Assembly (NCBI GenBank): GCA_002419365.1
Contig: DIGA01000117.1
Span: forward strand, 12,261 to 76,260
DNA from: Mageeibacillus sp. UBA5734
GTDB lineage: Bacteria > Bacillota > Clostridia > Saccharofermentanales > UBA5734
Reading direction: 5' to 3'
DNA: 64,000 nucleotides
Part shown: piece after piece, positions 21,939 through 53,074 of the stretch
Layout of the letters: each line of letters opens with the position of its first letter
Position numbering within the stretch: position 1 is the first letter of the stretch
Translations under genes and position numbers: made by a program
The notes under the pieces: generated by a model
What the model was told of the DNA's origin: nothing
Seen by the model: only the letters and a program-made list of their open reading frames with translations
Databases searched by the model: none

Positions 21939-22025
21939 GGGGATGTGGCGGAACTGGCAGACGCAGCAGACTCAAAATCTGCCGATTGAGAGATCGTAAG
22001 GGTTCGATTCCCTTCATCCCCACCA
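21939..22025 (+). tRNA. tRNA-Leu(CAA)
   Basis: GGGGATG/CATCCCC acceptor, GCAGA-CTCAAAA-TCTGC anticodon arm, long variable arm, GTTCGATT, encoded CCA. Confidence 0.97.
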
Positions 22026-22028
22026 GAC

Positions 22029-22071
22029 AAAAAGACCTTGGAACCAGAGAAATGGTTCCAAGGTCTTTTTT
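22029..22071. terminator. Bidirectional intrinsic terminator between tRNA-Leu and the hicA-like gene
   Basis: AAAAAGACCTTGGAACCA-gagaaa-TGGTTCCAAGGTCTTTTTT. Confidence 0.9.
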
Positions 22072-22109
22072 CGCTTGGATCGCGCTTCGTTGATGTCACA
22101 TCCAAGAAA

Positions 22110-22346
22110 TCAGGAACGGCCTTTGATTCTCGCCACTAAATCTTTTTTCTCAAGACCCTGTTGCCTTGCCAGAGCCGAAAGGGTTCCTGTCGGAATTTCA
22201 TCATGATCCTTGTGATAGTGAAACGTGACCACTCTGGGTGAACCGTCAAAAATGCCAAGATACAGCGTTTGATGCTTGCCTTTGGCAGAAAAATGATGCT
22301 TCTGCAGGAATCTCAGAAACTCACCCTGGCATACTGAATCAGGCAA
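22110..22346 (-). CDS. HicA-like type II toxin (mRNA interferase fold)
   Basis: 78 aa; GKH at the GSH position and H...EIPTGTLSALARQQGL. TTG start overlaps the upstream stop, with GGAGG RBS. Confidence 0.75.
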   Translation of the reverse strand: MPDSVCQGEFLRFLQKHHFSAKGKHQTLYLGIFDGSPRVVTFHYHKDHDEIPTGTLSALARQQGLEKKDLVARIKGRS

Positions 22347-22767
22347 TCCTCAGGACCTCCCTGACTCGATTCCGATCTCCTTCGCTCAATATAATCAGGC
22401 TGATCACAAGCTGTTGCAAACCATTGAAAATACCTGAAAACACATCGGCGTGATCCAGATAGTCCTGGGCAAATTGTATCGATCCGTCTACCAATCGTTC
22501 AACGGCCTCATCAATGGTCTTGCCTTCGCCAACCAATTGCGGTACGAGTTCATTATAGATCGTATAGATTCCCAGCTTTTTGTCGAATTCAGTCACGTTT
22601 TTCACCTCAAGGGCCTGGAACATGCTCTCAAACATTTTCTCACTGATCAGATACATTGAATCCTGAGTTGATTTGTTGAGCAATTCACTCACCAGACCAT
22701 TTCGCGCATTGGCCTGGATTTCCCTGATTTTACTCCTGGTTTCATGTACAGCATAAACTAAACTCAT
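22339..22767 (-). CDS. Putative antitoxin (Phd/YefM-like N-terminus plus HicB-like core)
   Basis: 142 aa; N-terminal VYAVHETRSKIREIQ and YTIYNELVPQLVGEGKTIDEAVERL...DY; overlaps the toxin start. Confidence 0.65.
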   Translation of the reverse strand: MSLVYAVHETRSKIREIQANARNGLVSELLNKSTQDSMYLISEKMFESMFQALEVKNVTEFDKKLGIYTIYNELVPQLVGEGKTIDEAVERLVDGSIQFAQDYLDHADVFSGIFNGLQQLVISLIILSEGDRNRVREVLRIA

Positions 22768-22785
22768 ATCATCACCTTCACTTCA

Positions 22786-22814
22786 ATTATATACAAGATG
22801 GACACCTTGTACAA
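22786..22814 (-). promoter_or_regulatory. TA operon promoter with inverted-repeat operator
   Basis: Minus strand TTGTAC-17-TATAAT; TACAAG-N8-CTTGTA (22792-22811) fills the spacer. Confidence 0.7.
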
Positions 22815-22876
22815 GCTAATGATCTCAGTGGAAATACTGCGTCGATTTTCGTCGATTTTCTGCAAAAATTTCATGC

Positions 22877-22945: not shown

Positions 22946-23022
22946 GGGCCATTAGCTCAGTTGGTCAGAGCAGCCGGCTCATAACCGGTCGGTCCGGGGT
23001 TCAAGTCCCTGATGGCCCACCA
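22946..23022 (+). tRNA. tRNA-Ile2 (CAT anticodon, lysidine type)
   Basis: GGGCCAT acceptor, GCCGG-CTCATAA-CCGGT anticodon arm. Pattern resembles Bacillus tRNA-Ile2 rather than initiator or elongator Met; encoded CCA. Confidence 0.85.
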
Positions 23023-51721: not shown

Positions 51722-53074
51722 ATGAAAGTCTGCAAGTTTGGTGGTACTTCCCTCGCAAATGCCGAACAGATCCGTAAAGTCTGTGACATCGTCCTCAGTG
51801 ACCCTGAACGCCGGATCATGATCGTATCCGCACCGGGCAAACGCACCCGGGAAGACATCAAAGTGACAGATCTCCTGATTGCCCTGGCGAATGCCCGGAT
51901 CAGTGGATATGATGGCGAGAGCGAACTGGCCTCGGTTGTCCGCCGCTTTGCCGACATTGCCGAGGAGCTCGAGCTCGGTCCGGAGATCGTCGCTACCATA
52001 GAGCAGGACCTTCGCTTCCGCATCGAAGCTGATCCAGCCAATTCCCTCAAGTTCATGGATTCGCTCAAAGCAGCCGGCGAAGATAACTGTGCCCGTCTGG
52101 TCGCGGATTATCTCCAGAGCATAGGCAAGAAAGCCCAGTATTTCGACCCGAAAACGGCTGGCATGGTCCTCAGTGACGAATTTGGCAATGCCCAGGTCCT
52201 GGATGAATCCTACCCCCGGCTGGCCCAGCTCAGGGATTATCCGGGCATCGTTGTGTTCCCGGGATTTTTTGGATACACCCGCTCTGGTGAGGTCGCCACT
52301 TTCTCGCGCGGCGGTTCGGACATCACCGGGTCGATTCTGGCTGCGGCAGTCGAGGCAAAGGTCTATGAAAACTGGACGGACGTCGATTCTGTCTATGCCG
52401 TCAACCCCAACCTGGTCAGCAATCCCCATGCCATTTCGGAGATCACCTACGACGAAATGCGGGAGCTGGCCTACGCCGGTTTTACGGTCCTGCACGAGGA
52501 AGCCCTGACACCCGCCTACCGCAAAGCCATTCCGGTCAACATCCGCAATACCAATAACCCGTCCGCCCGTGGGACCATGATCGTGCGCAATCGCATCAAT
52601 TTTGACAGCATCGTCACGGGTATTGCCGGAGCCAAGGGTTTTTGCACCTTGAACATGTCCAAATACCTCATGAACCGAGAAGTTGGCTTTGCCTTGCGTG
52701 TCCTCCAGATCCTGGCTGATGAGTTCATCCCCTTTGAGCACATGCCATCCGGCATCGATTCCCTATCCATCGTCATGCGCCAGGAAGTGTTCACGCCAGA
52801 AAAGGAGAGGCATGTTGTGCGTCGCCTGGTCGATGAGATCGGCATCGAAAAGATCTCGGTAGACCGCAACTTGGCGATTGTCATGATTGTCGGCGAAGCC
52901 ATGGCCCACACCGTCGGTGTCACCGCCCGGGCAGCCAATGCCTTGTCCAAGGCCGGTGTCAACCTCGAAGTCATCAACCAGGGCGCCTCGGAAATCAGCG
53001 TCATGTTCGGAGTCCGTGAAGAATATTGCAATTATGCGGTCAAGGAGTTGTACAAGGAGTTCTTCAACCGCTAA
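51722..53074 (+). CDS. lysC: Aspartate kinase (Bacillus AK III/YclM-like)
   Basis: KFGGTSLA, VSAPGK, TFSRGGSDITG, WTDVD and C-terminal ACT domains. Confidence 0.9.
   Translation: MKVCKFGGTSLANAEQIRKVCDIVLSDPERRIMIVSAPGKRTREDIKVTDLLIALANARISGYDGESELASVVRRFADIAEELELGPEIVATIEQDLRFRIEADPANSLKFMDSLKAAGEDNCARLVADYLQSIGKKAQYFDPKTAGMVLSDEFGNAQVLDESYPRLAQLRDYPGIVVFPGFFGYTRSGEVATFSRGGSDITGSILAAAVEAKVYENWTDVDSVYAVNPNLVSNPHAISEITYDEMRELAYAGFTVLHEEALTPAYRKAIPVNIRNTNNPSARGTMIVRNRINFDSIVTGIAGAKGFCTLNMSKYLMNREVGFALRVLQILADEFIPFEHMPSGIDSLSIVMRQEVFTPEKERHVVRRLVDEIGIEKISVDRNLAIVMIVGEAMAHTVGVTARAANALSKAGVNLEVINQGASEISVMFGVREEYCNYAVKELYKEFFNR

Follow-up and report, generated by a model that had tools for sequence, protein, structure and literature searches.

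Two overlapping genes were found on the minus strand of the window, by which the whole stretch of 64,000 nucleotides analysed here is meant. The upstream gene encodes a predicted antitoxin of the HicB type and the downstream gene a predicted toxin of the HicA type. The positions of both genes and of the elements around them are collected in Table 1, where L048 denotes a relative of the cassette recovered from a metagenome and L050 the closest relative in the phylum sample. The overlap between the end of the antitoxin gene and the start of the toxin gene implies that the two are translationally coupled. The GC content of the cassette was 0.40–0.47, compared with 0.51–0.63 in the flanks. An earlier note on this DNA had described two overlapping frames with the longer one first, an AT-rich composition, a tRNA-Leu flank, the absence of an integrase or att repeat, and a TTGTAC-17-TATAAT promoter with TACAAG-N8-CTTGTA in its spacer; each of these features was confirmed, from the ORF coordinates, the base composition, the tRNA position, the 784-bp insert and the minus-strand sequence, respectively.

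Table 1. Positions of the genes and sequence elements of the cassette and its borders within the window
Feature	Position	Strand	Details
Antitoxin gene, hicB-type	22339..22767	minus	142-aa ORF, ATG start
Toxin gene, hicA-type	22110..22346	minus	78-aa ORF, TTG start
Antitoxin stop/toxin start overlap	22339..22346	minus	8 nt; same 8-nt overlap in L048 and L050
Shine-Dalgarno sequence	22772..22778	minus	AAGGTGA upstream of the antitoxin ATG, read from the sequence
Promoter	22786..22814	minus	-35 TTGTAC (22814-22809), 17-nt spacer, -10 TATAAT (22791-22786)
Putative operator	22792..22815		palindrome CTTGTACAAG and second half-site TACAAG
tRNA-Leu(CAA)	21939-22025		flank of the cassette
Hairpin	22029..22070		tRNA-Leu terminator; perfect 18-bp stem, A-run on one side and T-run on the other
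Insert segment	22072..22855		784 bp, absent from the same site in same-genus genomes
CAT-anticodon tRNA	22946-23022		other flank; labelled Met by ARAGORN; tRNA-Tyr next

The hairpin behind tRNA-Leu could also terminate the cassette, given the A-run and the T-run that flank it, and its reading on the opposite strand is the likely cassette terminator. The wider neighbourhood consists of housekeeping genes (pyrR, murD and tRNAs) and offers no clue to what the cassette does. The acceptor stem of the CAT-anticodon tRNA contains the pairs C4-G69, C5-G68 and G1-C72, a pattern that we take to be a better fit to tRNA-Ile2, the lysidine substrate, than to an elongator or initiator tRNA-Met. The 784-bp insert contains neither an integrase nor an att-like repeat. 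Its ends show no target-site duplication and no terminal repeats, inverted or direct, beyond a shared T-run; an internal 10-bp tandem duplication is present. At window positions 22840-22859, the promoter-distal end of the insert, the 10-bp unit CGTCGATTTT is perfectly duplicated in tandem; one clear copy is present in L048.

The antitoxin was assigned to Pfam family PF12910 (PHD_like) with an E value of 7e-12 and a score of 46 bits, which lies above the gathering cut-off of 27 and compares with 150–190 bits for typical members. NCBIfam has no family for the antitoxin, for the toxin or for four of six typical relatives, the remaining two giving sub-threshold YefM/Phd hints. An AlphaFold2 model built from 35 family sequences had a mean pLDDT of 81.8, and comparison with known structures gave 3k6q as a match by Foldseek (E 7.7e-7) and by VIA (Z 12.6 over 136 of 139 residues). 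This entry is Swol_0700 from Syntrophomonas wolfei, a structural-genomics structure titled as the antitoxin part of a putative TA system; it belongs to the same Pfam family and has the same fold over its whole length, while its identity to the window antitoxin is 16–17%. The PF12910-family profile matched 3k6q at 1.6e-39, compared with E 0.013 for the sequence of the window antitoxin alone.

Two parts could be distinguished within the antitoxin model. Residues 2–55 have the Phd/YefM fold, with a Z of 6.1 and an rmsd of 1.2 to 4zlx (Phd) over 47 amino acids (residues 2–49) and a Z of 5.8 to 2a6q (YefM); Phd/YefM chains overall gave Z 5–6.1 and rmsd 1.2–1.8 over 47–53 residues, and the family profile matched Phd/YefM at E 0.02–0.07. 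Residues from about 50 to 138 resemble the N-terminal, toxin-binding domain of HicB, as judged from 6g1c (Z 5.4, residues 55–138), 6u0i (5.0), 6hpb_B (4.7) and 4p78 (3.9), matches that are of middling strength at about Z 4–5.4. The antitoxin also carries a GEG-x-T-x-E/D-A stretch, presumably typical of HicB. The model thus supports a hybrid protein in which a putative Phd/YefM-like DNA-binding and dimerisation domain (about residues 1–55) is joined to a HicB-like, partial RNase H-like toxin-binding domain (about 50–138), because the HicB matches agree with one another and with the GEG-x-T-x-E/D-A stretch. A C-terminal DNA-binding domain is absent from the model, in which the C-terminus is helical and matches 3k6q, and the antitoxin has no APNR motif.

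The toxin matched Pfam family PF07927 (HicA_toxin) with an E value of 3.6e-5 and 24.2 bits, below the gathering cut-off of 27. When the profile of its branch was aligned by hhalign with a profile of eight canonical HicAs from related genomes, a probability of 98.4% and an E value of 5.1e-15 over 71 columns were obtained. The AlphaFold2 model (pLDDT 87.4) revealed the alpha-beta-beta-beta-alpha fold of HicA with an extra C-terminal helix at residues 67–75. The top five VIA matches to this model were all of the HicA family, namely 1whz (Z 8.2), 6hpb_A (5.9), 6g26_E (5.8), 4p78_C (4.7) and 4c26 (4.0), and the sixth was an unrelated chain at Z 3.0. Foldseek returned nothing at E <= 0.001, its best match being 1whz at 8.9e-3. 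Searches of PDB chains gave noise and a weak HicA match (E 1.6) with the toxin sequence, and 9svk (E 0.016) and 1whz (0.053) with the subfamily profile. The toxin further matched PHROG 353 'toxin' at 1.6e-5, and a phmmer search of 1.84 billion representative proteins gave nine hits at E <= 0.001, six of which are true small relatives. The 78-residue protein is therefore a HicA homologue. The best structural match, 1whz, is TTHA1913 from Thermus thermophilus, which superposes with an rmsd of 2.0 over 67 of 70 residues, the extra C-terminal helix included; it differs in that 1whz keeps the histidine of its GGH motif, whereas the window toxin aligns no histidine there. The earlier note had proposed that the small gene is HicA-like and that the upstream protein has a Phd/YefM-like N-terminus and belongs to the PHD_like family, and the comparison of both proteins by profile and fold that it had put forward as a check bore out the two assignments, that of the toxin in spite of a Pfam score below the cut-off.

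Mutation of the histidine of the G-x-H motif, which opens strand 2, abolished toxicity in all tested HicAs covered by the portions of the literature drawn on here, namely YpHicA3 (His28), BpsHicA (His24, together with Gly22), StpHicA (His36) and EcHicA (His23). In the window toxin this position was aligned to Leu28 by HMMER (with 9svk and 1whz), to a gap after Thr27 by MAFFT (with canonical HicAs) and to a two-residue gap after Thr27 by hhalign. An alternative register in which Gly23-Lys24-His25 corresponds to G-S-H is possible by eye. Position 25 is histidine in two of the eight close relatives and arginine or lysine in the others, and in the wider branch the residue after a retained K-G-S is N, T, K, R, V or F, not H. 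The GKH histidine, which the earlier note had numbered His24 and put forward for mutation, is His25 when the TTG codon is counted as residue 1; as the catalytic residue it is a doubtful candidate, being kept in only those two relatives and not recovered as the canonical histidine by any of the three alignments. RNase activity by the textbook mechanism is consequently not assured for this toxin, since on alignment the canonical histidine has no conserved counterpart and His25 occurs in only 2/8.

A second position was more strictly conserved. All 21 branch members aligned have His45, which is part of a Y-H-(K)-D motif whose Tyr44 is also invariant in the subfamily, and hhalign places a four-residue insertion here, after strand 3. 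Strand 3 of a three-stranded antiparallel sheet ends next to the point at which strand 2 begins, and on this geometric reasoning His45 could reach the old active site. His45 appears to be the best candidate for the catalytic residue, and it is a better target for mutation than the histidine of GKH.

Whether the two proteins are regularly encoded together was examined in 401 sampled genomes of the phylum. PF12910 was found in 63 of these, and in 5 of 61 close relatives with this genome counted. At 34 PHD_like loci of the phylum an intact HicA-like ORF of 74–79 amino acids lies directly downstream in 21 cases; two loci have a disrupted downstream ORF, two more were recognised by the toxin profile, and nine gave none in a simple ORF scan. 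Eleven downstream ORFs were scanned, ten of which matched HicA_toxin at E <= 0.025, one of these above the cut-off. The branch to which the window toxin belongs was found in 30 of the 401 genomes, and among its best 15 places outside this genome 13 are directly downstream of a PF12910 match. The two exceptions are decayed copies (L061 1543-1746 and L063 1350-1755): one is an N-terminally truncated toxin that has no antitoxin, and in the other the toxin follows a 66-aa antitoxin remnant. Disruption was also seen in two Class 5-type HicA genes (L029 1920-2270 and L037 1919-2128), one with an in-frame insertion of about 43 amino acids and one that diverges after about 22 residues in the manner of a frameshift. 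At G089:C24:8172-8726 the PF12910 and toxin-branch matches fall in one 266-aa frame, which looks like a fused HicB-HicA of the Phd-type layout.

The complex of antitoxin and toxin was modelled with an ipSAE of 0.79, against 0.01 for the best of three controls; the runs agreed in at least 98% of contacts, and the pLDDT of the partner was 87. Of 157 solved complexes 116 reach this ipSAE mark, as do 2 of 215 mismatched pairs; the counts are rough here given the use of custom alignments. The modelled interface comprises residues 58–81 and 95–113 of the antitoxin and residues 4, 22–25, 27–28, 30, 37–41 and 50–62 of the toxin. With the usual caveats the model supports binding of the pair, and, because HicAB complexes have already been solved, the score may reflect likeness to these rather than the binding of this particular pair.

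The promoter region contains sequences that resemble the operators of YefM. A promoter scan gave the adjoining register TGTACA-16-TATAAT with 10 of 12 matches. Transcription from the promoter is predicted to begin near 22779. The 10-bp palindrome of the putative operator (22806-22815) overlaps the -35 hexamer and contains TTGTACAA, and the second half-site (22792-22797) abuts the -10 hexamer. The two cores, TGTACA and TGTATA, the latter with one mismatch, are 18 bp apart, together spanning the -35 and abutting the -10. With one mismatch allowed, TACAAG-N8-CTTGTA (right half 22806-22811) occurs a single time in the 64-kb window, against 0.03 expected. The only other TTGTACAA in the window is at 53048-53055 (two found, 0.24 expected). 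Both boxes and both promoter hexamers fall within a 29-nt block that is unchanged in L048, whereas the third codon positions of the antitoxin and toxin genes of L048 differ at 46 of 142 and 34 of 78 sites (32–44%). In L050 the promoter contains three TGTACA-like boxes at a 9-bp spacing, and triple 8-bp repeats of other sequences occur in more distant members. As described in the sections of PMC1802561 used here, the YefM operator pairs a long palindrome (TCATTGTACAATGA) with a short TGTACA box; the two are usually 12 bp apart, with one case of 18 bp. The window resembles YefM-YoeB and Phd-Doc in the Phd/YefM fold of the putative DNA-binding domain and in a palindrome with TTGTACAA and a one-mismatch TGTACA box placed over the promoter; it differs in the 18-bp separation of its boxes, as against the usual 12 bp given in those sections (PMC1802561), and in a partner of the HicA type instead of YoeB or Doc. 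Autoregulation of the cassette by the antitoxin is likely on this sequence evidence, because TGTACA-type boxes lie in the promoter, the block is conserved in L048, and boxes recur in L050. The putative operator suggests that the Phd/YefM domain brought the TGTACA recognition code of YefM with it on being joined to a HicB domain, and together with the hybrid antitoxin it would provide a concrete case of domain shuffling among antitoxins.

The distribution of the cassette across strains, which the earlier note had put forward for examination, revealed a clean difference of 784 bp. The segment 22072-22855 is absent at this site in G001, G002, G004 and G007, where the T-run of the tRNA-Leu terminator is followed directly by the promoter region of the adjacent tRNA; G005 has its flanks about 30 bp apart, with a contig end close by, and G003 and G006 have other short spacers at the site. 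The cassette was thus found at this site in none of seven other genomes of the genus. L048 does have it at this site; the two sequences are collinear over 6332 bp (86.3% identity), and in L048 the cassette is as diverged as the flanks. L048 was the one locus recovered by the related-locus search of metagenome contigs, and the search of genome contigs with the antitoxin gave none. G001, which has the closest flanks (93–96%), lacks the cassette and L048, at 86%, has an equally diverged copy, a pattern that agrees with an old insertion followed by losses as well as with allele exchange by recombination.

Comparison with L048 also gave a measure of selection. The antitoxin genes differ at 60 of 426 nucleotides and 18 of 142 amino acids, giving a dN/dS of 0.098, and the toxin genes at 48 of 234 nucleotides and 10 of 78 amino acids, giving a dN/dS of 0.055; third codon positions account for 46 of the 60 and 34 of the 48 differences. 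Both genes are under purifying selection. In public sequencing data the stretch was found, among the matches listed, in 19 runs from 12 studies, with 6 RNA libraries. Contigs from four metatranscriptome runs of four studies cover parts of 22062-22828 with 0–1 differences; two of them bridge the gene junction and one extends to 22828, upstream of the predicted -35. These contigs are strandless, carry neither a start nor an expression level, and are uninformative for the stretches that they leave uncovered. They were not counted as proof of transcription because DNA carry-over is possible, strand and start are lacking, and one contig reaches to 22828.

The layout of the cassette corresponds to one that is already in print. 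In the parts of the survey by Gerdes (mBio 2024, PMC10865869) drawn on here, the contexts of HicA are sorted into 14 classes, of which Class 5, hicBA, has a reversed gene order, an N-terminal Phd/YefM DNA-binding domain on HicB and genes that often overlap; the complex is modelled as A2B2, and the promoter is presumed to hold the operators. On that analogy an A2B2 assembly would be expected of the window pair. Those Class 5 rows of its Table S1 used here (58 rows are in the sheet) list HicAs of 72–79 amino acids and HicBs of 129–156 amino acids with the NCBI label "Phd-like antitoxin". The listed examples come mostly from Bacillota; their HicAs, of the 72-aa type, carry TDH where the canonical histidine would stand, and their HicBs mostly have APNR (PMC10865869). 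Set beside these descriptions, the window has hicB first and overlapping hicA, a HicB of about 140 amino acids with a Phd/YefM N-terminus and a central HicB fold (of middling Z), and a small HicA, which places it in the Class 5 layout. It differs from the listed members in that its toxin has FHYHKD and not TDH and its antitoxin has no APNR. The FHYH/FDYH motif of the toxin branch gave 0 matches in Table S1 of the same source, as against 18 and 32 for two control motifs. The toxin also has no long three-helix 'Shared Domain', which by the description given in that survey sets it apart from Class 6.

Comparison with canonical HicAB from E. coli (6hpb), B. pseudomallei (6g26), Y. pestis (4p78) and S. 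pneumoniae (5yrz) revealed the same HicA fold and a HicB N-domain-like part that is modelled over helix 2 and the active-site loop. Canonical HicAB (Classes 3 and 4) is toxin-first with a C-terminal HTH or RHH domain on HicB, whereas the window cassette is antitoxin-first with an N-terminal Phd/YefM domain, and the catalytic histidine of the canonical toxins is unconserved in the window branch. No bench experiment on an antitoxin-first, Phd-type HicA module was found in literature on PF12910, on HicA/Phd and, from 2023 on, on HicA/hicBA/YefM. The view of the earlier note that this is a poorly characterised TA subtype was accordingly upheld in one respect and revised in another: the subtype is uncharacterised at the bench but not unrecognised, because it had already been printed as Class 5 hicBA, at least as that class is set out in the parts of PMC10865869 used here. 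As the layout was catalogued in 2024, no new class is opened by the present finding; this layout is already known, and most PHD_like genes in the phylum precede a HicA-like gene. New are the toxin branch in which the canonical histidine is not conserved, the TGTACA-core operator kept in a diverged relative, the clean 784-bp presence/absence and the purifying selection. The main interest lies in this toxin branch, in the YefM-like operator and in the clean empty site of a close relative. The cassette offers a compact test case, with its own promoter, operator, two overlapping genes and a borrowed terminator on 784 bp and a natural empty site in a genome with 93–96% identical flanks, and the branch raises the question of whether a HicA can function without the histidine needed by every tested HicA.

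Taken together, the locus is likely to hold a chromosomal type II TA cassette of the Class 5 hicBA layout; it occupies a 784-bp insert, with tRNA-Leu(CAA) on one side and the CAT-anticodon tRNA on the other. The cassette is real and intact, and as a predicted TA module it is probably active. One promoter probably transcribes both genes, with the 8-nt overlap coupling their translation. The antitoxin most likely dimerises and, by way of its N-terminal Phd/YefM domain, would bind the TGTACA-type repeats that overlie its -35 and -10, so that the operon would be repressed. In the complex model the HicB-like beta-sheet and the helix that follows it (58–81 and 95–113) lie over helix 2 and the beta1-beta2 loop of the toxin, where the catalytic histidine of canonical HicA is located; the antitoxin would neutralise the toxin. 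The free toxin would most likely bind and cut RNA independently of the ribosome, as other HicAs do, and growth would be arrested. More tentatively, this may be a branch of HicA with a rebuilt active site, in which the G-S-H histidine was lost and the invariant His45 of the YHKD insertion stands by the old site; either catalysis would have moved there or the protein would poison cells by binding RNA uncut, with the antitoxin still masking the old loop.

The same module could have abortive-infection defence against phages as its main role, and not selfish persistence or a stress response, which we regard as somewhat improbable. Such a role would agree with the cassette being an accessory insert of patchy distribution and with the argument of Gerdes, in the parts of the survey used here, that HicA modules are generally anti-phage (PMC10865869). 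Against it, the insert lies between tRNA and housekeeping genes with no defence island, the related-locus search of viral contigs gave no relative, and among the PADLOC models the toxin matched none and the antitoxin only an unrelated CARF model, weakly (E 0.0052), which was taken as chance.

It is distinctly unlikely that the cassette is a HicBA-derived pair that is no longer a working TA pair, in which the HicA-like protein has ceased to cut RNA and would serve only as a partner that binds RNA or regulates, or as co-repressor to the Phd-like protein. The replacement of the canonical GSH histidine across the branch, position 25 being H, R or K among the close relatives, speaks for this reading, as does the loss of toxicity without that histidine in every tested HicA of the literature portions used here. 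It accords poorly with the very low dN/dS of the toxin (0.055), with a His45 that is invariant in 21/21 within a conserved YH(K)D motif, with the antitoxin partner being kept in 13 of the best 15 loci, both exceptions being decayed, and with a modelled antitoxin that still covers the old active-site loop. This combination of constraint on the toxin, His45, partner retention and covered loop is how a live toxin under the control of its antitoxin would be expected to look. The small size of the genes, the TTG start of the toxin and its sub-cut-off Pfam score might suggest that an AT-rich spacer merely happens to contain two open frames, by chance or as dead remnants; this is refuted by differences to L048 that fall mainly on third codon positions with dN/dS <0.1, and both the confident folds and the pairing conserved across the phylum stand against it too.

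Returning to the preferred reading of a Class 5 type TA cassette, two further observations concern HicAs of the canonical type. The same genome contains a second HicA (G000:C48:434-577, L002), which scored 51.7 bits, has a KGSH motif and lies near the start of a short contig. In the alignment of canonical HicAs (A9, eight loci) a second histidine, in a P-x-H motif after strand 3, is invariant in 8/8 besides the G-S-H histidine; a structural paper, in the passages used here, describes the reported HicAs as sharing one conserved histidine only.
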